Below, in pieces: positions 7,593 to 43,733 of a DNA stretch of 53,173 bases (position 1 is the stretch's first letter; every line of letters starts with the position of its first letter). This DNA comes from Ginglymostoma cirratum (Eukaryota): the NCBI GenBank assembly GCA_024137785.1, contig JAHRHZ010000155.1, positions 677,992 to 731,164 on the forward strand. Direction: 5' to 3'. The notes under the pieces are model-generated. The model ran no database searches. It saw nothing but the letters and a program-made list of their open reading frames with translations, and was not told where the DNA came from. The translations under genes were made by a program, and so were the position numbers.

Positions 7593-7732
7593 ATAACATC
7601 TGGGCATACAGATCAAGTCTGTGAGGACACTATCTCAAAGCAGTTCCGATCTCTCAACAGCTGTCAGAAAAAGGTGAGGTCTGTTTTACTCCTTTCTCTT
7701 TCAGAAGCTGATGAAATATCTGGGAGTGGACA

Positions 7733-7772
7733 ATGATCAGAAAATCTTACTTCCTGCTACTACTCCTTCAAG
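7733..7772 (+). CDS. Siglec exon: signal peptide MIRKSYFLLLLLQ
   Basis: ATG at 7733, basic N-region plus poly-Leu core, phase-1 donor G|gtaatg. Splicing to 13026 gives MIRKSYFLLLLLQAGLAQEW. Polypyrimidine acceptor tttctctttcag ends at 7704. Confidence 0.85.
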
Positions 7773-10700: not shown

Positions 10701-13700
10701 TGTGTGATTAAAGGTTCATACTATTTTTATGCTTTAATTTGTCATTTGGATTTTGGCAGATGGATGTGTGTCAGTTCTGCAAACATTTTTTTAGATTAAA
10801 CAAGTTGAATAAACAAAATGAATTGAAACAGTGACCTATGCACATGAATTCCAACATAGCACGTGATTGCTCTGAAGTGCCTGGGAGAAACCTACAGTGT
10901 TAATGGGTAACTTGTTCATACTGTTGAGTTTATGACAGGAAGGTTAAACACATTAAGGGCATTAGTTTAGCTTTGACTTAAGAACAGAATATTCAAGGGC
11001 TCAGTTCGTAACATTCAGGAGGTCACTTCAGAAGGTTGAAAAGTTCCTTGCTGCAGGAGAATCATTTTTTAGTATCATAGAATCACGGAAGAGTTACAGC
11101 ACAGAAGGAAGCCATTCAGCCCATCATGCCAGCATCAGCTCTTCAAATGCCTCATTGCCTAGTGCCAATCTCCAGCCCTTAACTTCTATTCCTGCATACT
11201 ATTTCTATCCAAATAATCATCTAATGTGACTGTTCAATGACTCAAATGCTCCTGCTGCATTTCCTGGCAGTGCATTCCACACCCTCATTACTTGCTGGGT
11301 AAAAATGTTTATTCTTACATCGCCCTAGCTTCGTCTGCACATCCATTTAAATCTATGCCCCTCTCGTTCTTGTTCGTTTTATGAGTGGGAACAGCTTCTT
11401 CCTATCTATTCTGTCTAGAAACCTCACAACAGGGTAGGTACAGAGAGGGTGTTTCCGTGATGGGAGAGTCTAAGACTAGAGTGCACAAACTCAGAATAAG
11501 GTGCCGCATATTTAAGACACAGATGAGAAGGAATTTCTTCTCTAATGATAGAGAATCTGTGGAATTCTTTACTGCAGATGACTGTTGAGGCTGGGTCATT
11601 AACTATATACAAGGATGAAGTGGATTTTTAATCAGTTCATGGAGAAAAGGCAGAAAGAGGAGTTGAGGATTATTAGTTCTGCCATGATCTCATTGAAGAC
11701 TCAATGGGCCAAATAGCCTATACCTTTACCTACATTGTGTAGTTTATGGACGTCCTGCTAAATTTCTATTGAATGTTGATAAAACCCTACGAAGGATGCT
11801 GTAGCTTTCATCTCCATCCCATAAAGAGGATATCGAGGGGTTGGAGATGTGCCAAAGAGATTGACAAAGATGATCCCAGACATTGGTGGGGTGGAGGGGA
11901 GTGGTTTACACATCAGGAAATTATTTCCAATCAAGCAAAATTTCTTCTCTATTGGAAGAAAAAAGCCTGAGGGATGACCCCATGGATGTTGACAAAGTTT
12001 TGAAAGTTTGAGTGGATTGAGGGAGAATATTTCATTTTGTGTGAGAGAGCATATGTTTGGCCAACAACAGAAGACAGGCACCAAGAAATCCAATGAGGAA
12101 TTTGGGAGAAACAGAGAGTCAGGAGGAATGTGGGACTCACTTCCACAGGGAGTGGGGGAGGCGATGTGGAACTCACTCCCATAGGGAGGGGTAGAATTTG
12201 GGACCAGCTCCCGCACAGAGTTGGGAGGAGAATGTGAGATTCACTCCCACAGACAGTAGTGAAGGGGAATCATGTCGATGTATTAATTGGGAGCACTAGA
12301 TAAACATATTAGGGAGAAGGGAGTAGAAGGTTATGATGATAGATTTTGATGAAGAGAGATGGGAGGCTCAGGTGCAACATTAACAGCAGCATGGATGTGT
12401 TGACCCAAATCGCCTGTTTCTCTGTCACAATTATCCATTATTCTTGGTCTCGCTGGTCTGTCTCATCATTGTCTACATCAAAGACATTGACCTCAAACAG
12501 TCCTCTAAGTGATTGCCTGCTTCCTGATTCCCACAATTAAAACTGCCATCCGCACAGCACCATTATGTTAGGGATATTAAACTGTATTATAAATGAGATT
12601 GGGAGTCTGTAATTACTAATCTATCTGAAAAGGAATTCTTCAAACAAAAAGGTTTAAGAATCACTGCCTTAGACTATGAGGATCCAGGAAAGTGAGCATC
12701 TAATCAGTGATTCATGCTGGTGATAAGGGTGCGACTTCTGAGGACTTCTCGTCCATTGTGCTGCCCTGTAAATCAGCTCAGAATGCATGTCCATTGGTGT
12801 GTCTTGTAGAAACTGTGTTGAGTGGAAGACTAGCTTCACTAAGCAGGACCGTGAGAACTGTGAGACAATGTAGGATGTACCTGTCCATCTGCTATGTAAC
12901 CTTGGGGAGTTCCTTGTAGATGGTCCACACTGTAGCCACCGTGTATGAGTGACAGAGGGAGTGAATATCGAGTCTAGTGGATCTACAGGCCATTCAGTGC
13001 TAAATACTGATATTTCTCTTCACAGCTGGACTCGCACAAGAGTGGCAAGTCCACACTCCACCTGAGGTGACGGTACAGGAAGGTCCCTGTGCACATATTC
13101 CGTGCCGCTACACTTACCCTTCCCATCTAGCAAACCAACCACGAACCGGAATCTGGTTTAATAACAAGGATTGGAAAACATCATCAACAGCCTTTCACTC
13201 CAAGGATCATAGTCGCGAGTTGGGACGGTTCTACCTTCGGACCCAACTGTCTGGAAACCTGAAAAATGGAGACTGTTCTTTGATTATAAATAGCATCACA
13301 CAGGAAGACGCAGGACCTTATTATTTCAGAGTAGAATTTGACATCAGGAACAGTTACAGCTACTATCCTGTAACCCAGCTTCACGTTTCTGGTAAGTGCT
13401 GAGTTATAATTACTTAACAATCCTATTGTACATTCAATGGGAGAGGACACAGGTCTGAGCTCTTAGTTTTATAGGTGTGTTAACCAGGTGTTGTAGCTTT
13501 CAGGGTTTCATTTATTTGTTCTCCCAGATCCACAAACTTATTACAGGTGACAGCATCCACATCAGAGCCTGAACAGAAACTGAGCTGCAGACAATGACAT
13601 CATCCACCTTAGTGAATCCTCCCCTCCTGTCTTCATCCAGCAACATTATCCCCACAGACTGGTGTGGTGACCGTGTGGCATTATAACTAGGTCACACCTC

Positions 13701-16700
13701 GACCTGACCACCGTCTCTGGCACATTCTCCTCCTTTGAACATTTCAGCACTTTCACCTCTCTTTCAAAATCCCCTTGCACTATTATCCTCGTAGCTGCCA
13801 TAAGAATGTTCTCACCGTGATAGCTTTACTGCTCCCCTCCCTCAGCGTCTGCAACAAAAGACTTCCCGTCCTTGGAGATTTCATTTCTGTGTTCATGTTT
13901 GACTGCTCTGATGATTCCTGGCTTGTCTTCCACATTCTACCCTCTGGAAAATCCAGGCCACCTAAATCTTATTTCACAGCAAATCCCACTCTGCTACCAA
14001 ACCCCTGCATTCGCTGGCGTACGCTGATTCCTCATCAACCATATAGTCACAAAATCATACATAATGGAGCAAACCCTTCAGTCCAATTCGTCGATGCCAA
14101 CCTAATTCCCCAAACTAAACTAGCTCCATTTGCCCACATATGGCCCATATCCATCTAAACCTTACCTATTTATGTGGCTGTCCAAATGTCTCTTAATTGT
14201 GGTAACTGTACCTACATCTACCACTTCCTCTGGCAATTTATTCCACATACAAACCACCCTCTGTGTGATAAAATTATTCCTCAGGTCCCTTTTACATTTT
14301 TCTCAGCTCACCTTAAAATTATGCTGTCTCATTCACATCCTTGTTACCATCCTCTTCCTGTAATCATCTTCAGTTCCATGGGAGATCTCGAGTTCTGTCC
14401 TCTTGTGGACACCTGTCTTTACTTGTCTCACCGATGGTGTATTTATCATTCTAGTTGGCTGGAATTCAGGAATTCACTTCCTGAACCTCTTGCCTCTCTC
14501 TTCTGACATCCTGCCTAAGACCATAAGAAATAGGAACAGGAGTAGGCCATTCGGCCCCTCTAGTCCATTCTGCCATTCAGTAAGATCATGGCAGATCCGA
14601 CATTCCTTACATCCACTTCCTGCATTTTCCCCATAACTCTTGATTCCTCATCAAAAATCCATAAACTTCACCCTTAAATATACAACGACTCTGTCCCCAA
14701 ATGTTCTCTGTGGCAAGGAGTTCTAAAGACACTTAACCCTCAGAGAGAAGAAATTCCTCCTCATCTGAGCCTTAAATTGGCACTCCTTTAATCTGAGACT
14801 ATGTCCTCTGGTCCAAGATTCCCCCATGAAGTACAACATCCTCTCAGCAGTTACCCTGTCAAGCCCCTTCAGAATCCCATATGTTTCAATGAGATCACCT
14901 CTCCTTCTTCTAAACTCCAGTGAGTAGAGTCCCAACTTGTTTAACCTTTGCTCAGAAGACAATCGCTCCATACCAGGGATCATCCTAGTGAACCTTTTCA
15001 ATCCAGCCTCAGTTTGTGATAACCCAGTGTCTGATTCTCAATAACCCGCTGATAGCTTCCAATTCAGTCCTGGAGAAAACTCTAATACTGACATGAATAT
15101 CAATGATCCAATGTATTGACTGTGCCCATCAATGTTGTCGGGTGATCCACTCTCCTGTATCTCTCTCATCGTGTTGAAAAATCTCAGAGACAAAAAAGAC
15201 TCACATTTCTGTAAAAATCAAAAAGAACTGCAGGTGTTGTGAATCAGAAACAAAAAACAGAATTTGCTAGAAAAGCTCAGCAGATCTGGCAGTACTTGTG
15301 AAGAGAAATCAGAATTAACACTTCAGGTCCAGTGACCCTTCCTTAGAACCTTTGTTTTTGTCTCATATTTCTGTAGTGCCTTTCACCGTCTCAGGATATT
15401 ACAAACAGCTTCACAAACAATGAAGCAATTCCACAAATAGAGTTGCTGCTGCCATGAGGGATTCACAGTCACCATATAAGACAAACTCCAAAAAAAACAG
15501 GATTGTCATCAAAAATCTGATCACATATTTCATTGTTCTGGCTGAGATTATTACCAATCGTTGCTGTCCTGTTGCAGGCAGGATTTAATTGGAATTTGGC
15601 AGATTTCAGAGAAAGTGAGGAGCCAGTCCTCCCTGGGCTCTGAGCTGCTCCCCCTCCTGCACCCAGCATTGTCCAATCACAGGTGGTGGAGTGAAAGTGT
15701 GTTAAACGGAGTGACATAAACTTCACCAAGTCAGAAAAGAGGAAAGTCTTTACTGATCATTGTACTCGGTTCGAATATCATCCTGGTGAAAGTGTCTTCT
15801 CTTGTGAGATGGTTACTTCTATTTTAACAGCCACTTTACATTATATGTATCTAAAAGGATCCATTCTCTGTGTGTTAGATTTCACAGATAAGCCCACGAT
15901 AGCCTCTGTGGAAATTATCGCAGGAAAGCGTGTGAGCCTAAGATGCACCTTCAACACAACGTGTACTGGAACCTCTCCTGCCTTAACATGGGTCACTCCC
16001 ACTGCCGTACGTGGATCAGTCTCAAACACTGTAACTCAGCATGGTGTCACTCTGACCTATACTTCTGTTCTGACCCTGACACCATCACTCAGACACCAGG
16101 GACAAACTCTCACCTGTAGAGTGAGTTATCCAACTGTTTCTTCAAAGCAGACCCTCGTACTAACAGTGCAATGTAAGTATCAACATCCTTCATTCGACAT
16201 TAGGCGCAACAGTTTACAATGTGCTCAGGAAGATCTGACGAATAATGGAAATAGAACTGTGCAATTAAATACTGTCTGACAGTGCTGCACTCCCTCGGCA
16301 CTGAACCTCTGATAGTGCGGCGCACCCTCAGTCCTGACCCTCTGACAGTGTGTCATTATCTCAGTGCTGAACTGTTGGTCCTAATGACCTTTCTCTTAAC
16401 AAAGAAGGTGCATCGATATCACTCCTTTCACATTCTAACAGCCTTTCAATGCTTCACATTCAGTGAAAGTGAATCTGTTTTATTTGCTTTTAGATCCACC
16501 ACGGAATCTCGCAATTACTTCTCTTTCTGTGATTAAAGATTCATCGATTAATATAATTGAGGGGAATTCTGCAGTGATAATCTGCTCTGTTCAGAGCATC
16601 CCAGATTCTAACCTGATGTGGAGACATTTTAATGTCATAATGAACAGAACAAGTTCCAACAATGAGCTGTGGTTAGAGATTCGTCACATTACGTCCAGGG

Positions 16701-19700
16701 AGGCAGGAGACTATCAGTGTCGGGCAGAGAATGAACATGGAGCAATGGTGGGCTCCATAACCATCAATGTGGAATGTAAGTCAATGTACATATGTTTCAA
16801 CTTTACTCACTGGCACACACACAGGACCTCATGTGCCCCAATCAGGCACATGCACAGGGAGATTGGAGACTATAAGTGTGTAGCAGAGAATGAACATGGA
16901 GCAGTGGAGGGCCTCATAACCATCAATGTAGAATGTGAGTGTACGCAGACTTCAACATTTCTCTCACATACACACACCAACACACGAGTACAGTCCTGCA
17001 GACACACACATGTGACATGTCCCCTCTCTCAGTATTGCACTGGAGCATCAGTATGAGCTTCAATTCTCTGCTGAACGAATGCAAATTCCAGATTAACCAG
17101 ATACTGTCTTGAACCAACAATCCCCTGCATACATGACGATGGATTTCTTTGTTGGATCCATTTATACTGTGTAAGCGCTGGTGAACATTGTAACATTTAG
17201 GGAAAAAGAATTTCAATGCTTGCTGCCTGGAAGGAAGCAAGATAAACATTGTGCTGCTCAGAAGGTTTCTGTAGCAGCCTGATTGCCTCTGTTTGGAGCA
17301 TGGGATGAATCCTAAGAGCATTTTTATAGCGCCATGTAATCAGGAGTCAGGAGATGTTCTAGGAGCCAGTGAGTGCAGCCAAGTGGTATAGGTAAAGCTC
17401 ATTAAATGCTTAGAGTCATAGAATCAAAGAGCTGTACAGCACAGAAACAGACCCTTTGTTCCAAACCGTCCATGACGACCAGATATCCTAAATTAATCTA
17501 GTCCCACTTGCCAGCATTTGGCCCATATTGATCTAAACCCTTCCTATTCACAAACCAATCTAGGTGCTTCTTAAATGTTGTAACTGTACCCGCCTCCACC
17601 ACTTCCTCTGGCACCTCTTGCCATACACGCACCACCATCTGTGTGAAAAGGTTGCCCGTTAGGTCCCTTTTAAATCTTTCCCCTCCCACATTAAACATAA
17701 GCCCCTGAGTTTTCAACTCACCCACCCTGGGGAAAACATCTTGACTATTCACCCTATCCATTCTCTTCATGACTTTACAAATGTCAGTCAGGTCACCCTT
17801 AAGCCTCCAATGCTCCAGGGAAAATAACCCCAGCCTGTGCAGCATCTCCGTGTAGCTCCGACTCTCCTACCCTGGGAACAGCCTTGTAAACCCTTTCTGA
17901 ACACATTCAAGTTTCACAACATCCTTCCTTTCGCACGGAGACCAGAACTGAACGCTGTATTCCACAATTGGCCTAACCAATGTCCTCGACAGTGACAGCA
18001 AGACCTCCCAACTCCTGCAGGCAATGCACTGACCAATATGCAAGCATACCAAATGCCTTCTTCACTATCCAAATCTACCTGCGACCCTACTTTCAAGGAA
18101 CTATGAACCTGCACTCCAAGGTCTCTTTGTTCAGCAACACTCCCAAGGACCTTATCATTAAGTATTTTGGTCCTGCACTGATTTGCCTTTCCAAAATGCA
18201 GCACTTCACATTTATCAAAATTAAATTGAATCTGCCACTCCTTAGACCATTGGCCTATCTGATCACGGTCCCATTGCACTCTGAGGTAACCTTCTTCGCT
18301 GTCCACTAAACCTCCAATTTTGGTTCCTCTGCACACATGCTAACCATACTTCTTAAGTTCACATCCGACTCATTTATGTAAATGATGAAAAACAGTAGCC
18401 CCAGCACCAATCCTTGCAGCACATCGCTGGTCACAGGCCTCCAGTCTTAAAAGCAACCCTCCACCACCACCCATCAATGATATGAGGCCCAGTGTATGAC
18501 TCAGAACATATCTCTGATCAATTACTAAATCAAATAGTGTTGCTGAGACATCTCTGGGATCAAATCCAATGCATTGCTGCTTAGGCTTTGGGAATATTGT
18601 GAGGATGTGAAAGATATTTTCTTCTTTTCAGAATGAACAGCACCCTAATTGGTGGGGGAAGGAGCCTACACTGTGACAGTTTACGTTGGCAGTGTCCATC
18701 AGGAGTGTCATACAGCAACTACCACGCAGAAATTTTCAAGGATTCACATGTCAGAGTCATAGAGATGGTTATGGAGTCTTGCTGTGCACTAGGTTTGCTC
18801 ACAATATTCTCCCCCTTTGTCTCTAGATGCGCCACGGAATCTCTCAATTTCTTCTCTTGCTGTGATTAAAGATTCATCGATCAATATAATTGAGGGGAAT
18901 TCTGCAGTGATAATCTGCTCTGTTGAGAGCTTCCCAGCTTCTAACCTGATGTGGAGACATTTTAATGTCACAATGAACAGAACAAGTTCCAACAATGAGC
19001 TGTGGTTGGAGATTCCTCATGTCATGTTCAAGGAGACTGGAGAGTATCAGTGTATGGCTGAGAATGATCATGGAGTAGTAGAGAGGTCCATAACAATCAC
19101 TGTGGAATGTGAGTGTACACAAACTTCAACATCAAGGGGCAGGACAGTGGTCAGTAGGGGTGCCACAGTGGCTCAGTGCTTAGAACTGCTGCCTCACACC
19201 ACCAGGGACCCTGGTTTGATTGCACCCTTGGATGACCATCTGTGTCGAGTTTGCACATTGTCCCGTGTCTGCATTAGTTCCGTCCGGGTGCTCCAGTTTC
19301 CTCTTGCTTGCAAGATGTACAAATGAATTGGATTGGCTATGCCAGATTGTCCGGTAGTGTCCTGGGATGTGTAGGTTAGATGTGTTAGCCATGGGAAATA
19401 CAGGGTAGGGGGATGGGTCTGCATGTGTGATGCTCTTCAGAGGGTCAGTGTGGTTCATTGGGTCGAATGGCCTGTTTCCACACTGTCAGGAATCTACAGA
19501 AAAATAATTATACACACACAAACACAAGAGTGCAGACACATGTGTGGCATGTCCCCTCTCTCAGTTATTGCACTGGAGCATCAGTACGAGCTTCAATTCT
19601 CCATTGACTGTAAAGATACTGCCTTGAACCAGAAATCGCCTGCACAAGGAATTGTAGATTTCTTTGCGGTGAATTTATTTTTATTGTTATATCCATATAA

Positions 19701-28700: not shown

Positions 28701-31700
28701 ATATTCTCTTCCTTTGTCTCCAGATGCGCCACGGAATCTCTCAATTTCTTCCCTTGCTGTGATTAAAGATTCATCGATCAATATAATTGAAGGGAATTCT
28801 GCAGTGATAATCTGCTCTGTCGAGAGCTTCCCAGCTTCTAACCTGACATGGAGACATCTTAATGCCACAATGAAAAGAACAATTTCCAACAATGTGCTGT
28901 GGTTGGAGATTCCTCACATTACATCTAGGGAGACTGGAGAGTATCAGTGTGTAGCAGAGAATGAACATGGAGCAATGGAGGGCTCTATAACCATCATTGT
29001 GGAATGTGAGTGTACACACACACAGGCACCTCCATATTGTGTGTGTGAATGGGGTGGGCAAAGTCGGAAATTACACCAGGTTATAGTCCAACACCTTTGT
29101 GAAATCACAAGCTTTCGGAATGTTGCTCCTTTGTCAGGTGAACAAACCGGACTTCACCTGATGAAGCAGCAGTGCTCTGAAAGCTTGTGACTTCAAATAA
29201 CCCTGTTGGATTATAAACTGGTGATGTGTGACTTCTGACTTTAACCCTGCAGAAACACACAAATGGGACATGTGTTGCACTGGAACATCAGTATGGGCTT
29301 AAATTCTCTGCAGAAGGAATGGAAATTCTATATTAACAAGATGCTGCCTTGAACCAGCAATGCCCTGTGTAGATAACCGTAGATTTATTTGTGGTGAAAT
29401 TATTTTCGCTGATAGATCCATTTGTATTGTGTAAGCGAGCACCTGGTGAACATTGTAACATCCAAAGAATAAGCATTCCAATGGTTGCACATTCATTCCT
29501 GCATAAACAAAAGGGTGCGGTTTGTTGCAATAACTTCAGTAAGTCTCTCAGATGAGTTCAAGAGCCAGCAGCTGTTTAGGTTTGTGTTAATAAAACAATG
29601 ATTGGGGAGGGGTGGGGGCGGTTGCTGTTAGCTGTACTGCTCTGATAAAGTTACTGAAATGGCCTGATTTTGTCTGATTGGAGATTGGGGTGAAATCCCA
29701 GGAGCTGTTTTATATCTCACCACAGTTATGAATCAGGAGATGACCTGGGAAGCCAATAGTTAATGCTAAGTATCACAGCTTGAACTCACAGGAATATATC
29801 TTGAAGTTGTGTAAGATCAGAGGCTCAGAAGATGCTCGTTAATAATTCAGAAAGTGAGGAATTGCTATCCCTTTTAAAGCTTTAAAGAGCTGATGATCTA
29901 AAAATCAGGCCCTTTCAGTAACTTTATCAGAGCATTACAGCTAACAGCAACCCCCCCACCCCCAATCATTGTTTAACTGATGTCTGGGTATGTTACTGAG
30001 AAATCTGTGGAATTAACCTTTATTTAGTTTTGGAAGAGCTCTATGGTGTGATTGATTACACTTTCTGTTATCCATATTTACCGCACATTAATTTTGGACA
30101 TTGGCACAGGAGCAAGTGTAGGCAAATCAAGGTCTTTTAGTGAAAATTTGTAGCTTGGGTTGTGGATGCAGTTGTTTGCTAGCTCACCGAGCCAGCTGTT
30201 TTGTGTACAGACATTTTGTTACCTTTCTGGCAAGCTCATCAGTGTGACCCCTAATTGAAGCGTTAATGCTCTGTTTCCTTCCGGATTTATATGATCCTCT
30301 AGTGTGATGGTCTTGTGGCTGCCAGGTCTGTTGTTTTAACAGCGGTCTGTATTTGGGGTCTATTTCTACGTGTTTGTTAATGGACTCCCGTGTTGAGAAG
30401 CAGGCTTCCTGAAATTCCCTCACATGTCCAGTGTTCGCTTGACCTAATCGAACTGATGGCTCTCATCGTCCGTGTGGATTGAGACAAGTGAATATTGGTC
30501 GTGTCTTTTTATTGTCAACTGGTGTTCATGTATCCTGGTCATCAGTTTCCTTCCTGTTTGTCCAATATAATGTTTGTTGCATTCACTGCATGGTACTCTG
30601 TATATCACATTGGTCTTGTTTACGGTCAGTGTGGGATCTTGTCTTTGATAACATTTGGCGCAGCATTGCCCTAGGTTTGTGTGCAATCATGATCTCATGT
30701 GGTTTTAGGAGTCTGGTAGTCATTTCTGATGCATTTTTGGTGTATGGTAGCATTGCCAGTTTCTTCTGTTGTTCCGTGTCCTCTGACTCATTTGTTTTGC
30801 AGGCATCTGCGGACAAAACTTCTTGGGTATCCCCTGTCGCTGAAAACTTTGTGTAGGTGTTCCTCTTCCATTCTCTGGAGTTCTGGTGTGTTGCAGTGTG
30901 ATGCAGCTCTGTTTGTGTATGGTGGGGTGGTTGCTATTGAAGTTAAGGATTTGGTCCGTGCGTGTGTGGTCTTCCTGGGTACTCGGGTCCAGAATTCACC
31001 GTTAGTCAGTCTCTCTACCATTACATTTAAGAACGGGAGCTGTTTGTTGTTTTCTTCCTCTCTAGTGAAATTTATGTTTGTGAAGATGTTGACAAGTTGG
31101 TGGTTTACTTCTACTTTTGTGCGTTTGATTATTACAAATGTGTCATCCACATATCTTACCCACATGTTTGGTTGGACTATAGGAATTCATTAGTATTCAT
31201 CTCGTATTTCATTCTCTGCATCACTGCTTCTGTGACGAGGCCTGAAATGGGTGATCCCAACAGGATGCTGCTGATCTGTTTGTATAACTGTCCGTTGAAC
31301 ATGAAGTGCATTGACAGGCATAAATCTAGCAGTTTCAGTAGGCTGTCCTTGCTGATGGTGGTGCCGGTGTTCAGGGTCGGTGCTCCTGGTCCGTCTAGTA
31401 GTGTGGCTAGTGTCTCTCTGGCTAACGGTACGTCAATGGACGTAAATAATGCTATAACATCAAAGAAGATCGTGATTTCATCCTTGTTGATTTTTGTGCC
31501 CTTGAGTTGAGAGAGAACTTCCTGGGCGAATGGATAGAGTGTGGGAATCCGCTAAACAGATCAACGGCACACTGATTGGTTCACCAATCTCAAGTCTCAT
31601 CACGGAAGCAGTGATGCAGGGACTGGAATACACAGTCCTTCCTATAATCCAACCAAAAGTGTGGGTAAGATACGTGGATGACACTTTTGTAATAATCAAA

Positions 31701-34700
31701 CGCACAAACGTAGAAGAAACCCACGAACTTGTCAACAACATCTTCGCAAACATAAATGTCACTAGAGAGGAAGAAAACAACAAACTGCTCCCGTTCTTAG
31801 ACATAATGGTAGAGAGACTGATTCACGGTGAATTCCGGACCTAAGTATATAGGAAGGCCACACACACAGACCAAATCCTTAACTTCAGTAGCAACCACCC
31901 CACCATACACAAACAGAGCTGCATCAAGACACTATTTAAATCAGCTGCATCACACTGCAACACCCCAGAGGTCCAGAGAATGGAACGGGAACTACACAAA
32001 GTTTTTACTGACAACAGATACCCAAGGAGATTTGTCTGCAGCTGCCTACAAAACAAACGAGAGTCAGAGGACACAGTACAACAGAAGACACTAGCAGTGC
32101 TTCCCTACATCAAAAATGTATCAGAAATGACTACCAGACTCTTAAGAACGCATAAGATCATGAGCGCACACATGCCCACAGCGACATTGCACCAAACGTT
32201 ATCAAAAACTGAAGACCCCATACCAACAGTAAACAAGACCAATATGATATACAGAATACCATGTACTGAGTGCACTAAACATTACATTGGATAAATAGGG
32301 AGGAAACTATGCAAACACCAGCTGGCAGTAAAAAGACACGACCAATATTCACTTGTGTCAATACCCACAGACAAGGGCCATCAGTTCAACTGGGTCAAAC
32401 TGACCATACTGGGACAAGCGAACACTAGACAAGGGAATTTGATAGCCTGGTTCTCAACACAGGACTCCATTAACAAACAGAAATAGACTCCATATATAGA
32501 CCACTGCTAAAACAAGAGAGCCAGAAGCGTCAAGACCATTACACTAGAGGATCATATAAATCTGGAAGGAAGCAGCACAACAACGCTCTGGCTAGAGGTT
32601 GCACTGATGATGTTGCCTAAAAGGGGAACAAAACATCTGCACAGCATAGAACAACCAGCACGGCGAGCTAACAAACAACTGCAATAGGCCATTCAGCCCC
32701 TCAAGCTTGTTATGCCATTCAATGAGATCATGGCTGATCAATGGACGAAGTCCATAAACCTGCTTTTGACCCATATCCCTTAATACCTTTGCTGAACAAA
32801 AGTTTCTGTGTCAGATTTAAAAGTAATAACTGATCAAGTATCCACTGCCATTTACAGAACAGAGCTCCAAACCTAGAATCTAAGTTGGATATATGTTATA
32901 GATTCTATCACTATTCCAATTTTGGATAAGTTTCTTTTGTTGAAACTTTGGAATTCTGTGACTTTATTTTCTTTGTAAGTCGATGGCATCTCAAACATTG
33001 TCTCCTTTAAAAGAAAATTTCCTGATCCCTCACTAGATGCTAACCTGGTGATCTGCTCTGGGATCATAACATATCCCCCAATGTTCCATTGATCAAATTC
33101 AATTCATTGCCGCTAAGGCTTTGAGAATATTGAGGATGTGAAAGGAACTTTCTTTCAGAATGGACAGCTCCCTACAGTGTGACAGTTACATAGGCAATAT
33201 CTGTCAGAAGCGTAGTGCAGCAACTACCATGGACAGATAGTTATGAGGAATCCACATAGCGCATTCAGAGAGATGGATATGGAGTCTTGCTATGAACCGT
33301 GTTTGCTCACAATATTCTCTTCCTCCATTTGCAGACCCACCACGGAATCTCGCAATTACTTCTTTTGCTGTGATTGAAGATTCATCGATCAATGTAATTG
33401 AGGGGAATTCTCCTGTGATAATGTGCTCTGTTGAGAGTTTCCCAGCTTCTAAACTGACATGGAGACATCTTGATGTCACAATGAACAGAACAAGTTCCAA
33501 CAATGAGGTGTGGTTGGAGATTCCTCACATTACATCCAAGGAGACTGGAGTCTATCAGTGTGTGGCAGAGAATGAACACGGATCAATGGAGAGTTCCATA
33601 ATCGTCGCTGTGCAATGTGAGACTACCATTACATTTGTTCATTGTTACATCTTCAGAGAAGCCATTGGCATTGTCTTGTTTCTTCAAGCCTCCCTCATTC
33701 CACTGCTCCGATGTTATCTATGATCTGATTTTTCTTTATTCTTTTCTGTTTACTGCATATTTCTCCTACAATTGTTGCTGAGACAAAGATGGTTCTTCAC
33801 TAAGTCCTTACCTGTCTATCTCAATCTAACTGGACCTAACACACTCTTGACTCCTATACTTCCATTCTCTTTATCTAAGCCCTTGACTTGTCTTGTTCTG
33901 CATCCAGCTGAATCCGACCACCCTTGGGCACACCCACATTTCAAAACCTGTTACCTTCCTCTCATCCACTTTCTTCAGGGTCTGACCCTCACATTCATTG
34001 AGTATGACCCTCCACATTACCCTGCACCCAACGTTTTCTCAGTTTCAGGCTGTTTTCAGATATTTAGATTGAAGTCACTGGTCACAGTGCTTGCTGTTAT
34101 TTTTCTAAGCTAAATTAGAGTTCTGGATGTAATTTTAATATTTATTCTTGAGCCAAGTATTGGAATTTGTCCACTCTCCCCATCTCAGTACACCCAATCT
34201 TGATATCCTCATTGCCATTTACAGTCATTAGGTTGGCCGTTGCTGCATACATGTCGGCCATTGCTGCATTCACCACCAGTTCGAATGTCTCCCTGCGTTC
34301 TTGTCTGGGTCTATCATACACTCCAGCTCTTGCTTTGTTCTGTTTGTGTGTGTAGTGCCGTCTGCACACCAGTGATTCCACAGCCGTATCCCTACAAACA
34401 AATTTATATCCCAAGAGACTCTGAGATTTACATTATCTATGACAGGCATTAGGATGCTTGTAAACACAGACAAACATTTCCCAAACACTTTCCGCTTTTA
34501 AGACATTTTTAAGTTAAACCTTCTGTATGGTGCTTTCAGTCAGTAACCAAAGATCTCCTTATGTAGCTCAGGATAATGTTTTGCCAGAAGGAGGTGAAAA
34601 ATGAGGGAGGTAGTTCCAGAGATTCAGGCTTCACGCAATTGACTCAGGAAATACACAAGAGGCCGGAACTAGAAAAGTAGAGATCTTGGAGGGTGTGGGG

Positions 34701-37700
34701 CACAGGGATTACCTGCTGATTCTTCTCTGCTCTTGTTCCAGATCCCCCACGGGAGACCAAAGCGTCCATCAGTGGAGCCTCAGGTGGGATCAGAGAGGGA
34801 AACAACGTCACATTAACCTGCTCCAGTGAAAGCGTCCCATCGATATCTCATTACACCTGGTTCAGGATCGAGGGAAACACCAGCACCTGTTTAAACACAA
34901 GCAGCCGGATTCTGTCTTTCACACCAGTAACGCGGAGGGATGATGCAGATTTCTATTGCACAGCGACAAACCCATTGGGTAACAGCAGCTCCAACACAAC
35001 CCACCTGAATGTGGAATGTAAGCAGTTTACTCTGTCTATCTCTTCTTAAAACTCAGGGGCTGTCTATCTGAGAGCAGCTTACACACTGCAGTTTAGAATA
35101 AAGAGCGTAACCTCCCCACTGCTGTAATCTGTCTCTCACTGAGACATACAGCATGATATCAGGATTGGTAATTAATAGCTTGGCTGCTAAGGAGCATCAT
35201 AAAGGAGAAGTGAGAGGGGCATGGACTATTAGGAAGGGAATATCAGAACTTTAGTTCCTCGGCAGGTTCTGGAAGATGCAGTCACAATGGATGGGCGATT
35301 GAAACTTGGCAAGGTTCAAGAGGTCATAATTGGAGGAGGGCAGAGATCTTGAAGGGTTGCAGGGGCCGGCAGAAGTTACAGAGAAAAAAAAGTGGGTAGG
35401 GAAAGATTTGAAAACAAGGATGGGAATTATAAACTGGTGTTTCCAGACTGAGCAACAATGTTGTTCAGCTAAAGACAGAGTGCAACTATTAATTCCAGAG
35501 TGGTGCAACTTAAGACATAGGCAGTAGAGTTTTCGATGAGCTGAAGTTTACAGAGTGTGGGAGATGGGAGAGCGTTTAGAAATGAATTTGGAGTCGAGCA
35601 AGACACTGAAGGCGATTTTGGCGTAAATATCATAACTGTACTATATTTGGCTAATTGTTATCGTTCGCTTCTCAGATGGTCCAGAGATTTCCTGGGAGTC
35701 GGAATGTACTCGGAGGTCAGAGGGGATCACCTGCGTCTGTGTGGCCAACTCCAACCCTCCTGGAGACCTCACCTGGCACCTGCTCCATGCCAACCTCAGC
35801 GGTAACCAAACACACGGAGGCTTTGTGTCACAGCAGCTCAGAGCTGGGCATCAGGTGATGGGTTTCCTGATCCTGATGGCACACCAGGATGAAGATGAAG
35901 TGATGGGATCATGCTCGGTTCGAAATCCGCATGGTGCAGCCACGTTCAAGGTGCATCTTTGGGTCAAAGGTGAGCAGATTGACTCTGGATCGATCTTGGC
36001 TTGGCTGGTTATACCCTAAACTCTAGAATCCCCTTCTTCCCCATCTTCACCTCCTTTATGATGCTCTTTCCCACCAGCCTCTGACCAGCACGTCCTCAGA
36101 GTTATAGAGTAGAGTTCGAGAGTAATACAACATGGAAACAGGCCCTTCGGCCTGTTGGCTATGGTGCCCACTCAGCTATTCCAATGGCCTGCATTTGGTT
36201 CATATTCCTCTAAACCTTCCCATCCATGTACCTATCCAAATGTTTGTTAAAATGTTGTTATTGTACTTGCCTCAAACAATTTCTCTGGCAGGCCATTCCA
36301 TATTTGCACCACTCTCTACATGAAGAAGTTGCCCTTCTTAAATCTTCGGTGATTCTTAAACCTTCGCCCTCTCACCTTAAACCTATGCCTTCTGAGTTTC
36401 AATTTCCCATTGCTGGGAAAAAGGCTATATGCATTCATCCTATTTCTGCCTGTCATGATTTTATACACCTCAACAAGATCACCCCTCATTCTCCTACGTT
36501 CCAAGGAATAAAGTCCTATCCTGGTCAACCTCTTCCTATAACTCAGGCCTACTAGTCCTCGTAAGTCTTCTTTGCACACTTCCCAGCTTAACTATGTCTT
36601 TCCTATAATAGGGTGATAAAAACCGTACACAATACTCCAAGTGCGGCCTCACCAATGACTCATACAACTGTAACATAATATCCCAGTGTTTCAGCCGATG
36701 AAGGCCAGCATGTTAAATGCCTTCTTCATCACCCTGTCCACCTGTGAAACCGCTTTCAAAGAACTATCTACTTGTACTCCTAGGTCCCTCTCCTCAGAGC
36801 CTTACCATGATTTGACTTTTCAAAGTGCAACATCTCACACTTATCTGTATTGAATTGCATTTGCTAATCCTCAGCCCACTTCCCCATCTGATCAACATCC
36901 CTCTAATTTTTAATAATCTCCTTGCTATCAATGACACCTACTAATTTTATATCATCCACAAACTTACTAATCATGCCTTGTACATTTCATATCCAGACCA
37001 TTTATGTAAATAACAAAGTTCCCAGCACCGACCCCTGTGGCACACCACTTGTCACAGGCCTCCAGTCCAAGAAACAACCTTCAACCATCACCCACTGCTT
37101 CCTACCATCAAACTAATTTTGAATCCAATTAGCTAGCCTCCCTGGATCCTAGGCGGCCGAACCTTCATAACTAGCCTGCCGTGCAGGACCTTGCCAAAGG
37201 CCTTACTAAAATGCATATGGTCAACGTCCACAGCCCTACCTCATCTATCCTCTTTGAAGAGGTAAAAAAAACTCAGAATTTGTCAGATGTGACTTCCTGC
37301 CCATAAATCCATGCTGACTATCCCTAATCAGACCTTGACTATCCAAATACTGGTTGATCCTGTCCCTCAGTATCGTCTCCAATAACTTGCCTGCCACTGA
37401 TGTCAGGCTCACTGGCCTGTAGTTCCTTGGCTTGTCTTTGCTACCTTTCTTAAACAATGGAAAATTAGCTACCCTCCAGTCTTCTGGAACTTCACCCATG
37501 GCGAAAGATGAAGCAAAAATCTCTGCAATTTCTTCCCTAGCCTCCCACAATGTCCGAGGACAGACTTGATCAGGCCCAGGGGATTTATCCACCTTAATGT
37601 GATTGAAGGCTGCAAACACCTCCTCTCTCATAATATGTATGCGGCCCAAAACATCCCTATTTGTTTCCCTTATTTCTTTAGCATCCATGATTCTCTGCTC

Positions 37701-40700: not shown

Positions 40701-43391
40701 CAGTCCGTGCATACATGATTACAGTCTCAAGCTACAACATGGTTACCTCTTAACTGCCCTCCTCTCTCAGTTTGTGGGGGTTAGGAAAAAGACACCTCAC
40801 AACCTTTCAAGGGACAATGAAGGAGTATTAAATGTCAACATTGCTTGAGAATAAATTCTGAAAAATGGAGTGCGTTGCTTCTCATGATACAACAGTGTCA
40901 TTCCAGCGTGGTAATTAATGGCTATGTTTACAGGTAGAGACTTCAATAAATGGACAGTAGGACTGGTCATAACTGGAACTGTGTTCAGCATTTTCCTGGC
41001 TGGAATCTTAATCTTACAGAGTGTGGACAAGTAAGTATGAATACATCATTCGATTTTATTCTAAATATTTACTTTCACTTTCATCCCTACAGTTGGTGAC
41101 TGTTCTCTTCAGGTGAGGTACCAGGCAGTACTTCTGTAAGTGGTTCCCTGTGTCCCCATGATCCAGAGCGGGCCTTTCATTGTGTGTCCAGATTAGAAGT
41201 TATAAGTTGTTGTGATATGGAATACGCTGCCTGATGAGGAGGTAGAAGCATATTCAACAGGAACTTCCAAACATGTAACTGTATCTACGCTGCACTGATT
41301 CTGACTTACAACAACCGCACTTTGATATTGTGATATTGCAGGAGAAAGACAGCAATTGAGCAGACAGCTTCGAAGACCAGTGACATTGCATTGACCTACA
41401 GTCAACTCTCTGTGAAACACCAGGTAAACAAGAGGCGGTTTACACTCACTTTGAAGCTTTAAGCTCAGCATTTAAACAATGCAAAATGTTGCAACTGACA
41501 AATCCAAGGATTTTCTCTGCATTAACATCACTTTTTCAAAGCTGCCAGCAGTGACAGGACTTTGCACAGGACAGTCACAGAATCCCTACAGTGTAGAAAC
41601 AGGCCATTTGGCCCATCAAGTCCACACCACCCCTCCATAGAGGATCCCATCCAGTCGGCATATCCATGGGCAATTTAGCATGGCCAATCCACCTAACCTG
41701 CACATCTTTGGAATATGGAAGAAAACCCATGCAGACATAGAGAGAACATGCAACCTCTATGCACACAGTTGCCTGAGGCTGGAATTGAACCCAGGTCCCA
41801 GGCGTTTTGAGACACAGACACACCTCCCTCCCATCAAGTTAAACAAAGATCAAATTCCAGCCAAACGGAATGTGGAACAGGGACAGGAGTGTGGAAGTTG
41901 TGCGCAGCGAAGATGATTAAAAGGCAACGTCTGTCCCAGACACATTACCCATGGATTTCTATCCGTAGAGCAAGTCATGGCTCAGTGGGCAGCACTCTCA
42001 CTTTCCCTTTCTGAATCAGAAGGTTTAATAACCAACTCCACAAATTTAAACATAACCTGACAAAACTGTCACTTTGGGGAGTACCACACTGTCGGAGGAT
42101 CATACTGAGAGTGCTGCCCTTGTCCTAAAGAAGGGTCATTATACTTCAAACATAAACTGCCTTTTTTTCACAAATGCTGCCAGACCTGCTGAGTTTCTCC
42201 AACAGTTTTTGTTGTCATTGTTTCAGACCCCGAGCATCTGCAGTTTTGTTTCATTGTTCAAAAATTGGTTGATGTCAACTGTTTGCGGGACCTTTCTGTG
42301 CACAAACAGCTGCTGAATGCCTACACTACAACAGTGAATACACTTCCAAAAGGAGCTCTCTGTGAAGGTGTTTTGGAACGTTCCGTATGAGGGAAGAAGA
42401 GAGATCAAATCTAAATTTAGAGTCAAACTATGCCATTCCACCTGAGAGGAGAAAGGATTGAGACTAGGAGGGGCACAGAGACAGACAGAGGCAAAGCAAG
42501 CGAGAGACAGACAGAGGAAGTGGGCGGTGGTGGGGGGGGGAGGGAGGGAGCAAGAGAATGAGTGAGAGAAGGTTAAATCAACCGAACGGTGAAAATCGTT
42601 TACGAGGCTGTGCAATAACTGAACTCAAATATGCCAATAAATGTTGAGAATATCACTTGTTTCCGTTTCTTGATGGATCTCCGCACTGCTGGAGTTGCCA
42701 TCTTTAAGACAATAGATTAAACCACTCCTTCTGCCCTGGGCACAATTTGGAAGAGAAGCTGTGAGCAGTTCTCCTCATTGTCCTGGGTCCTATTTCCACC
42801 AAAAACAGAATTAACAAAATGAAGTAATGTAAGTTATTCTAATACTGCTGTTGAGAAATTTGTTGTATGCAAATTGGCTGCTGTGTTTCCTATATTACAT
42901 CAATGACTAGAGTTCAATAAATAAAGTCCTTCAGTGGCTGAGGAGCATTTGGGATGTTCAATCTCTGTGAACAACGAATTTTAGCCTTCAAGGTAAGCAA
43001 GAGGTGGAAGTTAAACCCACAGAATCATGATTGACTCTCACGAGGCTGTGCAATAATATAAACCTATCCGTGCCAATAAATGATGAGAACATCTTATATT
43101 TCAATCTCTCTGCAGGGTTCTCAGAACATGGTAGTTACTGACCCTCAGAACACAACCAGGGACATAACTAGAGAGGAGGACACACCAGCTCCCCAGGGTG
43201 TCTCTGAGGGTCCCGTGGGAAAGGAGATGCTGAACACGGGGACCCCAGAAGAACTAAAGACCTCCTCTACACCAACATCAATTTCTCAAAGCTGCCCGGC
43301 AGTGACAGTGCTGAGCACAGGGGCAAGGACACAGAATACGCAGAGATCAGATTCCAGCCAAAGTGAGAAACCCAGAGAGGGGTCTGAGTAG
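7733..43391 (+). CDS. Siglec-family receptor gene, spliced CDS of 13 coding exons: signal peptide, V-set, 8 C2-set Ig domains, TM, cytoplasmic tail with tyrosine motifs (~1040 aa)
   Basis: All exons have AG/GT boundaries and join in consistent phase (phase 1 between Ig exons, phase 2 after TM, phase 0 before the last exon). V-set shows Siglec hallmarks. No one-to-one mammalian orthologue can be assigned by eye. Confidence 0.93.
8860..9145. repeat. Degenerate ~28-bp minisatellite (~10 copies)
   Basis: Unit approximately gatcccttagacaatgaggatccaaaga. Confidence 0.75.
12120..12260. repeat. Degenerate ~35-bp tandem repeat (~4 copies)
   Basis: Unit approximately ggagaatgtgggactcactcccacagggagtggg. 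Confidence 0.55.
13026..13391 (+). CDS. Siglec exon: N-terminal V-set sialic-acid-binding Ig domain
   Basis: Acceptor tttctcttcacag, donor G|gtaagt. VTVQEGPCAHIPC (extra Cys for inter-domain disulfide), GDCSL, and DAGPYYFRVE with the essential Arg at 13328-13330 and no F-strand Cys, followed by SYSY. Confidence 0.96.
14520..15005 (-). mobile_element. CR1-type LINE 3' fragment
   Basis: KRFTRMIPGMERLS...LEFRRRRGDLIETY on the minus strand. Confidence 0.85.
15879..16172 (+). CDS. Siglec exon: C2-set Ig domain 2
   Basis: DFTDKP...CTFNTTC...W...TSVLTLTP...HQGQTLTCRV matches the Siglec domain-2 pattern with its extra Cys. Acceptor ttag (an in-frame alternative cag lies 9 nt later), donor T|gtaagt. 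Confidence 0.94.
16494..16775 (+). CDS. Siglec exon: C2-set Ig domain 3 (repeat copy 1)
   Basis: 282 nt, YPPRNL...EGNSAVIICSV...W...GDYQCRAENEHG; tttag acceptor, T|gtaagt donor. Confidence 0.93.
17410..18475 (-). mobile_element. CR1-type LINE 3' fragment (RT C-terminus)
   Basis: QFNFDKCEVLHFG, RDLGVQVH, LVRPIVEYSVQFWSP motifs. Confidence 0.85.
18827..19108 (+). CDS. Siglec exon: C2-set Ig domain 4 (repeat copy 2)
   Basis: 282 nt, open frame, ctctag acceptor, T|gtgagt donor, paralogous to copy 1. Confidence 0.92.
19155..19500 (+). mobile_element. tRNA-derived SINE (HE1-like)
   Basis: Same head and core as the 7283 copy. The paralogous copy at 24098-24425 sits at the same position after the exon. 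Confidence 0.75.
22060..23075 (-). mobile_element. CR1 LINE fragment (duplicated with the intron)
   Basis: Paralogous to 17410-18475, with the same junction (...cttaaaagcaaccctcc...atgaggcccag). Confidence 0.8.
23785..24066 (+). CDS. Siglec exon: C2-set Ig domain 5 (repeat copy 3)
   Basis: 282 nt, open frame, ctctag acceptor, T|gtgagt donor. Confidence 0.92.
24098..24425 (+). mobile_element. tRNA-derived SINE (HE1-like)
   Basis: Paralogue of 19155-19500. Confidence 0.75.
26975..28015 (-). mobile_element. CR1 LINE fragment (duplicated with the intron)
   Basis: Paralogous to 22060-23075. Confidence 0.8.
28724..29005 (+). CDS. Siglec exon: C2-set Ig domain 6 (repeat copy 4)
   Basis: 282 nt, open frame, ctccag acceptor, T|gtgagt donor. 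Confidence 0.92.
30140..31535 (-). mobile_element. Penelope-like element, minus-strand copy (RT plus GIY-YIG, decayed)
   Basis: WVRYVDDTF RT motif; VIYRVPCSECNKHYIGQTGRKL GIY-YIG motif; frameshifted. Confidence 0.9.
31540..32685 (+). mobile_element. Penelope-like element, plus-strand copy (RT plus GIY-YIG, decayed)
   Basis: QINGTLIGSPIS, WVRYVDDTF, MIYRIPCTECTKHYIG; contains stops and frameshifts. Confidence 0.9.
33335..33616 (+). CDS. Siglec exon: C2-set Ig domain 7 (repeat copy 5)
   Basis: 282 nt, open frame, tttgcag acceptor, T|gtgaga donor. Confidence 0.9.
34742..35017 (+). CDS. Siglec exon: C2-set Ig domain 8 (CD22-like)
   Basis: Not in the ORF track; read by hand as YPPRETKASISGASGGIREGNNVTLTCSSESVPSISHYTWFR...DDADFYCTATNPLG...HLNVE. 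ttccag acceptor, T|gtaagc donor. Confidence 0.92.
35676..35969 (+). CDS. Siglec exon: membrane-proximal Ig domain 9 (MAG D5 / Siglec-5 D4-like)
   Basis: YGPEISWESECTRRSEGITCVCVANSNPP...W...SCSVRNPHG has the C-x8-CxC-x4-P pattern of the MAG domain-5 type. ctcag acceptor, G|gtgagc donor. Confidence 0.92.
36110..39195 (-). mobile_element. Long decayed CR1 LINE (ORF1 remnant, endonuclease, RT, 3' end)
   Basis: KSPGPD...VPEDWRVAN...NYRPVSLTS...QHGF RT N-terminal motifs; RRRMRGDLVEVYKI C-terminus. Confidence 0.88.
39205..39515 (-). mobile_element. tRNA-derived SINE (HE1-like)
   Basis: Reverse complement of the 7283 family. Confidence 0.75.
40934..41030 (+). CDS. Siglec exon: transmembrane segment
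   Basis: GRDFNKWTVGLVITGTVFSIFLAGILILQSVDK: about 22 hydrophobic residues with no charged residue in the core. ttacag acceptor in phase 1, AA|gtaagt donor in phase 2. Confidence 0.88.
41342..41423 (+). CDS. Siglec exon: cytoplasmic juxtamembrane segment with ITIM-consensus LTYSQL
   Basis: attgcag acceptor in phase 2 gives the KRK stop-transfer sequence, then TAIEQTASKTSDIALTYSQLSVKHQ. CAG|gtaaac phase-0 donor. Confidence 0.8.
41575..41815 (-). mobile_element. tRNA-derived SINE (HE1-like)
   Basis: Reverse complement of the 7283 family. Confidence 0.72.
43116..43391 (+). CDS. Siglec terminal cytoplasmic exon (ITIM/ITSM-like motifs present in a shifted frame, stop 43364-43366)
   Basis: ctctctgcag acceptor. 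The phase-0 frame reads GSQNMVV... to TAG 43389-43391. The -1 frame reads DLLYTNINFSKL...DTEYAEIRFQPK*, a classic Siglec tail. Confidence 0.82.
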   Translation, partial: GSQNMVVTDPQNTTRDITREEDTPAPQGVSEGPVGKEMLNTGTPEELKTSSTPTSISQSCPAVTVLSTGARTQNTQRSDSSQSEKPREGSE

Positions 43392-43727
43392 CCAATATGG
43401 TTGGATAATAACAATGAAGAGAAAATGACATTGCTCAATTTTGTTGTTGGTTCTGAACATGCTTTCCAATTGCTGCAGCTTTTTCATGCCCTCAAAGGTT
43501 GCACAAAGCTCATCAATAATTTTACATATATTAGTAGAAGCAGTTGTAATGAAGCTTCAAAATGCTATAATCATTTGGGAACTTTGGTTCCAAAATGGAG
43601 GAATGATGCAGATTTATTCTGAAAGCAGTGATCCATAACAGAAGTGCTGTTAATAGCAGCTTCCAAAGCAGTAGCACTGAGAGAAAATGACCTGACCTGA
43701 TTAGAAGATAGTTAAATTTGAATTCCA

Positions 43728-43733
43728 AATAAA
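43728..43733 (+). terminator. Possible polyadenylation signal AATAAA
   Basis: First AATAAA seen about 340 nt after the terminal exon stop. Confidence 0.3.

Follow-up and report, generated by a model that had tools for sequence, protein, structure and literature searches.

A nine-domain Siglec-like gene of Ginglymostoma cirratum belongs to an elasmobranch family of variable repeat number and shares a frameshifted cytoplasmic tail with two other carpet sharks

RESULTS

Gene structure and ectodomain

The DNA examined here, called the window throughout, is a stretch of 53,173 nucleotides from Ginglymostoma cirratum (assembly GCA_024137785.1, contig JAHRHZ010000155.1, positions 677,992 to 731,164), and coordinates are counted from its first letter. 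It carries a Siglec-like gene on the plus strand, for which splice-site reading of the window gave 13 coding exons between 7733 and 43391 with GT-AG borders at all 12 introns (Table 1). The spliced frame comprises 1,044 codons, from an ATG at 7733 to a TAG at 43389-43391, and its end coordinate coincides with that of an earlier annotation made from the letters alone (the original prediction). The predicted product is a type I membrane protein of 1,044 amino acids with nine immunoglobulin (Ig) domains, in which 21 N-glycosylation-type sequons were counted on the translation. All nine Ig exons, each of symmetric phase 1, were recovered by a six-frame scan between 13.0 and 36.0 kb of the plus strand. 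The gene is genuine, and the described architecture lies far beyond chance.

Eight of the nine domains scored above the curated Pfam cut-off as V-set, C2-set, or Ig; D9 gave no Pfam hit, its best match in the PDB nevertheless being MAG D5. When the V exon was compared with PDB chains, the first 18 of 23 matches were Siglecs. The top ones, sialoadhesin, Siglec-8, and MAG, lay within 3 bits of one another, with the sialoadhesin V domain leading by less than 2 bits. Arg115 aligned with the arginine of FRFE in sialoadhesin and of FRLE in Siglec-8, and this F-strand arginine is kept in 106 of the 115 V domains scored across the 78 homologues described below. Three cysteines are present in the V domain (35, 40, and 97) and three in D2 (158, 164, and 215), while the usual F-strand place of the V domain holds none; from these positions, we infer the Siglec pattern of an intrasheet V disulfide and a V-to-D2 link. 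Five PDB matches were obtained for D2, headed by a nectin and including MAG D2 and Siglec-8, and D8 best matched CD22 d7 (40.5 bits). An AlphaFold model of the V exon, made without an alignment, reached a predicted local distance difference test score of 37 and was not used.

The ectodomain proposed in the original prediction is thus largely upheld. The Siglec V-set with its essential arginine is backed by the Arg115 alignment, by the Pfam V-set match, and by the Siglec chains that head the PDB list, while the D2, the five repeated C2 domains, and the total of nine follow from the exon model and the Pfam matches. The labels of a CD22-like C2 domain for D8 (CD22 d7 match, together with the tree split given below) and of a MAG-D5-like last domain also hold, as does the transmembrane (TM) helix without a charged residue.

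Table 1. Coding exons and associated features of the Siglec-like gene, in window coordinates
Feature	Position	Strand	Remarks
Start codon and signal-peptide exon	7733..7772	+	40 nt, phase-1 donor; N-terminal 13 residues the same in P0025 and P0026
V-set exon	13026..13391	+	Cys35, Cys40, Cys97, Arg115 (13328-13330); Pfam V-set and Ig_CD22
D2, C2-set exon	15879..16172	+	Extra Cys164; Pfam C2-set_2
D3, repeat 1	16494..16775	+	282 nt, phase 1-1; splice sites and Pfam
D4, repeat 2	18827..19108	+	Splice sites and Pfam; best PDB stretch MAG D3, 31 bits
D5, repeat 3	23785..24066	+	Splice sites and Pfam; within 5.5-kb duplication
D6, repeat 4	28724..29005	+	Splice sites and Pfam; D4-D6 sit in 5.5-kb tandem duplication
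D7, repeat 5	33335..33616	+	Splice sites and Pfam; groups with last repeat of whale and zebra shark, Shimodaira-Hasegawa-like approximate likelihood ratio test (SH-aLRT) 99
D8, CD22-type C2 exon	34742..35017	+	Best PDB match CD22 d7; CD22-type side of 100/98 split
D9, membrane-proximal, MAG-D5/Siglec-10-D5 type, 4 Cys	35676..35969	+	Best PDB match MAG D5
TM exon	40934..41030	+	Uncharged helix; X1 and X18 contigs match the exon exactly, 0 differences
First tail exon	41342..41423	+	82 nt; sole in-frame tyrosine, LTYSQL (Tyr945, 41397-41399)
Last coding exon, 91 codons to TAG	43116..43391	+	Tyrosine-free and Ser/Thr/Pro-rich after codon 35; same tail in P0025 and P0026
2-nt insertion site (A run) relative to paralogues	43220..43222	+	Tail alignment with 18 relatives having intact tails
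Unread ancestral frame	43223..43366	+	ITIM LLYTNI 43262-43279, TEYAEI 43331-43348, family's stop position; frame analysis
Likely 3' untranslated region	43392..43877	+	AATAAA at 43728; X1 record 7 and X18 record 14 both end at 43877
Remnant 3' third of a repeat exon, outside the model	16853..16933	+	Own GT donor; 27 residues identical to end of whale-shark repeat 1 (P0025)

A frameshift in the cytoplasmic tail

The translated tail consists of 120 amino acids with one tyrosine, that of LTYSQL, and serine, threonine, and proline together make up 42% of its last 57 residues. An immunoreceptor tyrosine-based inhibitory motif (ITIM), LLYTNI, and an ITIM-like motif, TEYAEI, are encoded in the last exon in another frame, which is open from 43217 to a TGA at 43364-43366. 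An alignment with 18 relatives whose tails are intact places an insertion of two bases in this gene at the A run. Such a terminal pair was found in frame by pattern match in 25 of the 78 homologues; here, this feature of the inhibitory class is present but out of frame. Over 47 residues, the unread frame is identical to the tail of P0034 at 33, and 5 of 29 conserved columns are changed in it, compared with 1 of 29 in P0034, P0052, and P0059 and a range of 0 to 8 across 16 intact paralogues.

The shifted, tyrosine-free tail is also that of the two closest orthologues, P0025 of the whale shark (V domain 91% identical) and P0026 of the zebra shark (88%); a search with the shifted 58-residue tail returned only these two among 27 candidates. 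Arg115 is retained in all three species. The proximal LTYSQL is kept in the whale shark and reads LTSSQL in the zebra shark, where the tyrosine is lost. An assembly error at the frameshift was rejected because both orthologues carry the same tail; the site is also spanned gap-free by contigs of runs X1 and X4. The frameshift shared by the three carpet sharks is the part that is specific to this gene within its family.

Two elements of the original prediction do not survive these results. Its tyrosine motifs, in the plural, reduce to a single translated tyrosine, the ITIM and TEYAEI being out of frame, and its label of an inhibitory receptor becomes doubtful, as the terminal pair is out of frame both here and in the two closest orthologues. 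Neither does the gene show the multiple tail ITIMs of the CD22 type, with one tyrosine in 120 residues, or the mark of an activating receptor, since the TM helix lacks a charged adaptor residue. Nearby, degenerate copies of the last-exon ITIM region were observed at 41500-41900, split by a repeat at about 41575-41830, along with a degenerate copy, at 42566-42690, of the intron end that precedes the last exon.

Sequence contigs over the 3' part of the gene

Contigs from 4 of 19 listed runs (X1, X4, X18, and X19) were compared with the stretch from the TM exon onward. Record 7 of X1 (765 nt) matched 43113-43877 with 0 differences and 0 gaps and spans the insertion. Record 29 of X4, from a related organism, also spans it, covering 43122-43278 with 5 differences and 0 gaps; several of the X4 changes yield residues of P0025. 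Record 9 of X18 agrees without a difference with the TM exon and with the beginning of the last exon, and between the two it has 82 letters, the length of the exon at 41342-41423; this record ends at 43213, before the insertion. Record 22 of X19 covers 43238-43390 only. Splicing was read from matched pieces, the list of joints being dominated by the repeat at 41575-41760. The contigs show only that a spliced form exists. Spliced sequence over the junctions of the original prediction was accordingly seen from the TM exon to the last exon through one 82-nt exon (X18), the part of the gene covered by the comparison.

An elasmobranch family with a variable number of repeats

A search with the V exon yielded 78 homologues among 122 candidates, 77 of which were named and came from 20 species of sharks, rays, and skates. 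None of the 77 was holocephalan or from a bony fish in this word-seeded search, which favors close relatives. Membership in an elasmobranch, and hence chondrichthyan, expansion, offered as a possibility in the original prediction, is therefore well founded. RefSeq already annotates relatives as Siglec-like, and the annotated elasmobranch cluster (P0025, P0026, P0046, P0034, and P0066) has the same V, D2, repeat, D8, D9, TM, and tail exons. Names are inconsistent, with Rhincodon P0025 entered as "CD22-like" and Stegostoma P0026 as "hemicentin-1-like." Equal scaffold lengths of relatives do no more than hint at a cluster.

Seventeen relatives with a single V domain follow the plan V-D2-(repeat)n-D8-D9, where n is 0, 1, 2, 4, 5, 6, 8, or 10. 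The catshark protein P0046 has n = 5 and thus the same nine-domain plan as this gene, whereas the orthologues P0025 and P0026 have 6 and 8 repeats. Nine domains are a snapshot of a variable count and not a class, because the count runs from 0 to 10 among the 17 relatives. The five repeats of the window are 70 to 84% identical in protein, and a 5.5-kb tandem duplication (18559-24082 and 23516-29021) is 82% identical; at these levels of divergence, duplication of the repeats by the assembly was rejected. A quick tree built on 51 repeats grouped the copies of Heptranchias (support 100) and S. canicula (98) by species and interleaved the window's five with whale-shark repeats. V, D2, D8, and D9 are 87 to 94% identical to those of the whale shark, and the frame is open over more than 1,000 codons in three species.

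Several forms were observed elsewhere in the family. Five of the 78 homologues (P0002, P0024, P0055, P0057, and P0070) have a short tail and an arginine in the TM helix; one of these, P0002, comes from a catshark that also has the ITIM-tailed P0009/P0010, to which it is 95.7% identical over 376 amino acids, and judged by their sequences the two forms look like paired activating and inhibitory receptors. A third tail class, seen in 10 of 78 (e.g., P0030, P0033, P0036, and P0063), ends in two YxN-type motifs instead of ITIMs. P0001, P0002, P0003, and P0006 are models with 4 to 7 tandem V-set domains, and for some of them a fusion of separate gene models may be responsible. Elasmobranchs have at least three more Siglec groups (P0090, P0097, P0099, P0103, P0118, and P0129); in one of these, D9 is close to that of the family and V and D2 are distant, which suggests exon exchange in a cluster.

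Phylogenetic placement

Three trees were built: a quick V+D2 tree of 96 rows, a careful V+D2+D9 tree of 44 rows, and a careful V+D2 tree of 40 rows (10 rows dropped, 6 added). All were unrooted and included neither Siglec-1, Siglec-15, or mammalian CD22 nor an outgroup. In each of them, the family formed one group (99/96 in the 40-row tree), apart from MAG (100/99) and from shark CD22-like proteins (100/99). In the 40-row tree, the family shared one side of a branch with 11 tetrapod rows and one darter row, with weak support (83/71). Rows were called CD33-related when named Siglec-5, -10, -11, -13, or -16; the label was also given, on the strength of tail motif and place in the tree, to two rows without a name, an axolotl row entered as "MAG-like," and two turtle rows that bear other names. 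The family would thus sit, weakly, beside tetrapod CD33-related Siglecs.

On V+D2, the approximately unbiased (AU) test rejected a grouping of the family with MAG (P = 0.0055) and with shark CD22-like proteins (P = 0.0041; three shark rows, of which two carry this name in RefSeq); the groups were taken from the refuting clause of the original prediction, and the trees had been seen before testing. One-to-one orthology with either is contradicted by these values, and the family's separate placement stands. Family members are 27 to 31% identical to gecko MAG, compared with 55% for frog MAG and 41% for paddlefish MAG. No chondrichthyan protein occurred in the best 120 of 283 MAG homologues; shark entries named "MAG-like" share about 30% of their residues with gecko MAG, and a true shark MAG was not among the matches listed. 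The five-domain relative P0066 scored 66 bits against the CD22 D1-3 chain and 132 bits against MAG D1-3. With regard to the earlier statement that the gene fits no mammalian class, the separation from MAG and shark CD22-like proteins holds, and the emphasis on nine domains was overstated, as this is one value of the repeat count.

Origin of the combined architecture

P0066 aligned as a single segment to the entire ectodomain of MAG (E = 1e-60), and in PDB comparisons the repeats matched MAG D3 best. The five colinear domains of MAG are accordingly fitted, at the level of alignment, by five-domain relatives; this gene has nine, with a CD22-type D8. A profile search of 1.84 billion representatives placed MAG, Siglec-10 (manatee and wombat), shark CD22-like proteins, and amphibian Siglec-11/-13/-16-like proteins among the best 150 of 2,566 matches. 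Under our own domain profiles, MAG and Siglec-10 are both V-C2-C2-C2-D9 (with the same D9 type in P0207 and P0177), and because they show this plan, the pairing of a CD33-like V domain with a MAG-D5-like last domain is best read as a shared ground plan. In a tree of 57 rows and 90 columns, D8 fell among CD22-type domains across a 100/98 split, and the repeats fell with D3/D4 of MAG and Siglec-10. That D8 is simply MAG D4 was rejected on this split and the CD22 d7 match. A CD22-type C2 domain followed by D9 occurs family-wide and also in paddlefish P0176 and Heptranchias P0118; for this reason, the combination reflects old exon shuffling and not a feature of this gene. The hybrid architecture of the original prediction is therefore correct as to a CD22-type D8 and a MAG-D5-like D9, and overstated in that the plan is family-wide and the combination of V and last domain also belongs to mammalian Siglec-10.

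Other features of the window

A tblastn search of the window with stored proteins found no further Ig exon or second Siglec gene except the half-exon remnant at 16853-16933. This remnant is in frame with D3, which may have been replaced by another repeat copy. An out-of-frame ATG lies 22 nt upstream of the start codon and begins a frame of 33 codons that crosses the first junction (7711-13083). A similar peptide is found in the basking-shark models P0039/P0040, and this could be a conserved upstream open reading frame. At 30167-32683, intron 7 contains a broken reverse-transcriptase element as an inverted pair of 77% identical copies, with a weak RVT_1 match below the cut-off. Fragments resembling long interspersed nuclear elements lie at 36100-39200 and 50570-52350, with a weak RVT_1 match at 37248-37886 on the minus strand.

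DISCUSSION

Proposed function and alternatives

We lean, if only slightly, toward the view that this gene encodes a long-stalk sialic-acid-binding receptor for adhesion or capture with little inhibitory signaling. As known Siglec biology suggests, Arg115 would bind the sialic-acid carboxylate, and eight heavily glycosylated C2 domains would raise the V domain above the cell's own glycocalyx, a long stalk that would favor ligands in trans, as in sialoadhesin. Weak inhibition is proposed because the terminal ITIM pair is read out of frame: lacking this tandem pair, the tail would recruit SHP-1/2 weakly, and lacking a TM charge, the receptor would not use DAP12. A stop codon in the last exon is not expected to trigger nonsense-mediated decay. 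As to its history, the D3 exon of a five-domain ancestor would have been amplified by tandem duplication of symmetric phase-1 exons, and the insertion would have arisen later, in the lineage from which G. cirratum, the whale shark, and the zebra shark descend.

Several observations weigh against this proposal. LTYSQL, kept in the whale shark, fits the ITIM consensus, and some inhibition is possible. Long stalks occur together with intact ITIMs in P0034, P0046, and P0069, and stalk length and ITIM loss are uncoupled because these relatives keep both. The unread frame has stayed open, and its identity to P0034 is 70%, compared with 64% for the in-frame stretch before it. The contigs are of unrecorded or guessed type, X1 also holding intron pieces, and among the contigs listed for three source-organism runs only X1 has one across the insertion. 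Sialic-acid binding and signaling are themselves predictions from sequence.

Closest to the original prediction is the alternative that the protein is still an inhibitory Siglec, signaling through the single proximal LTYSQL. This motif agrees with [I/V/L/S]xYxx[L/V] as given in PMC7226832, and several paralogues (e.g., P0052, P0059, and P0020) have a tyrosine at its position; its loss in the zebra shark and in most of the 18 aligned relatives, together with the fact that the family's conserved motifs are the terminal pair, out of frame here, makes this alternative unlikely in our judgment. The locus might instead be a transcribed gene in early decay, with a frameshift that drift fixed within a redundant cluster and a product without a selected role. 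The frameshift itself, the exon remnant, the degenerate last-exon copies around 41500-41900, and the many paralogues would all suit such a fate, but the GT-AG borders of every intron, the retention of all Ig cysteines and the arginine, the long open frame in three species, and the high identity of V, D2, D8, and D9 to the whale shark render it very unlikely.

A further idea, that the ITIM frame serves a minority product and one exon yields two tails, through -1 slippage of the ribosome or through use of an alternative splice acceptor, draws on an in-phase heptamer, G GGA AAG (43217-43223). A -1 slip at this heptamer would move translation precisely into the ITIM frame, which continues without interruption to the family's stop. 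In eukaryotes, slippage is weak at heptamers that end in G. No stimulatory structure was found downstream (z-scores of +0.7 to +2.4 in each of 9 windows), the coding sequence contains four more in-phase heptamers at other places, and the zebra-shark protein reads VEK at the heptamer, where the GGG triplet cannot be kept. The 5 of 29 altered columns in the ITIM frame also speak against its use, albeit within the range of intact paralogues, and an alternative acceptor found no support among the joints listed. Programmed -1 frameshifting thus goes unsupported, as nothing folds behind the heptamer, and we regard a minority product by either route as highly improbable. Finally, this shark gene could be orthologous to MAG or CD22, with additional domains. 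The end-to-end alignment of P0066 with MAG, the RefSeq name of the whale-shark orthologue, and the missing chondrichthyan among the best MAG homologues are what this has in its favor; against both AU rejections, the low identity to gecko MAG, and the existence of separate CD22-like proteins in sharks and rays, one-to-one orthology is largely refuted and scarcely credible.

Comparison with known Siglecs

Among known groups, CD33-related Siglecs of the Siglec-10/-11 type are nearest in the unrooted V+D2 tree (83/71) and are alike in the V-C2-C2-C2-D9 plan and in the family's terminal ITIM and TEY-type motif. The family's near-identical inhibitory and TM-charged pairs recall Siglec-11/-16, which are paired receptors (PMC5701461). 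This gene differs from them in its nine domains, its CD22-type D8, and its out-of-frame terminal motifs. With MAG (Siglec-4), the five-domain relatives are colinear from D1 to D5, the repeats resembling D3 and D9 resembling D5; identity of about 30%, the rejected clade, and a D8 set apart from MAG D4 separate the two, and the family is multicopy and fast changing. CD22 (Siglec-2) shares the type of D8, and in Pristis the scaffold of a family member is equal in length to that of CD22-like proteins, but V+D2 of the family lie apart from shark CD22-like proteins, and this gene has only one such domain and one tail tyrosine. Sialoadhesin (Siglec-1), which has 17 Ig domains, offers a functional analogy only, in its long stalk and little tyrosine signaling; its repeats are of a different type, the count here is nine, and it was absent from the trees.

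Implications for the Siglec family

In the parts of the literature available to us, fish are said to have regularly only Siglec-1, CD22, MAG, and Siglec-15 and no inhibitory CD33-related Siglecs, sharks going unmentioned there (PMC7226832). The ancient set is given as Siglec-1, -2, -4, and -15 (PMC9008986, PMC9630641), with CD33-related genes diversified in mammals (PMC9008986). Siglecs are listed among families enriched at the jawed-vertebrate ancestor (PMC8455134), and a Siglec cluster is placed at Tetrapoda (PMC13262535). We found no description of this elasmobranch Siglec family or of the frameshift, which does not establish absence from print.

The ITIM-pair tails of the family, its candidate activating partners, and its weak tree link to CD33-related Siglecs bear on when the CD33-related system arose. 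Sharks and rays may have a full CD33-related Siglec system of their own, co-orthologous to the tetrapod cluster, a suggestion we put forward tentatively and with some doubt. Such a system would comprise ITIM-pair receptors, near-identical TM-arginine partners, and YxN-tailed, multi-V, and variable-stalk forms. The nine-domain count is itself unimportant, and the family, with its three tail classes, is of more interest than the gene. The gene does offer a natural experiment, in which the ectodomain family stays the same and two bases, in a single carpet-shark lineage, switch off the inhibitory pair. If the suggestion is true, CD33-related Siglecs would go back to the earliest jawed vertebrates, and one frameshift would have turned a member of the system, this gene, into a sialoadhesin-like receptor.

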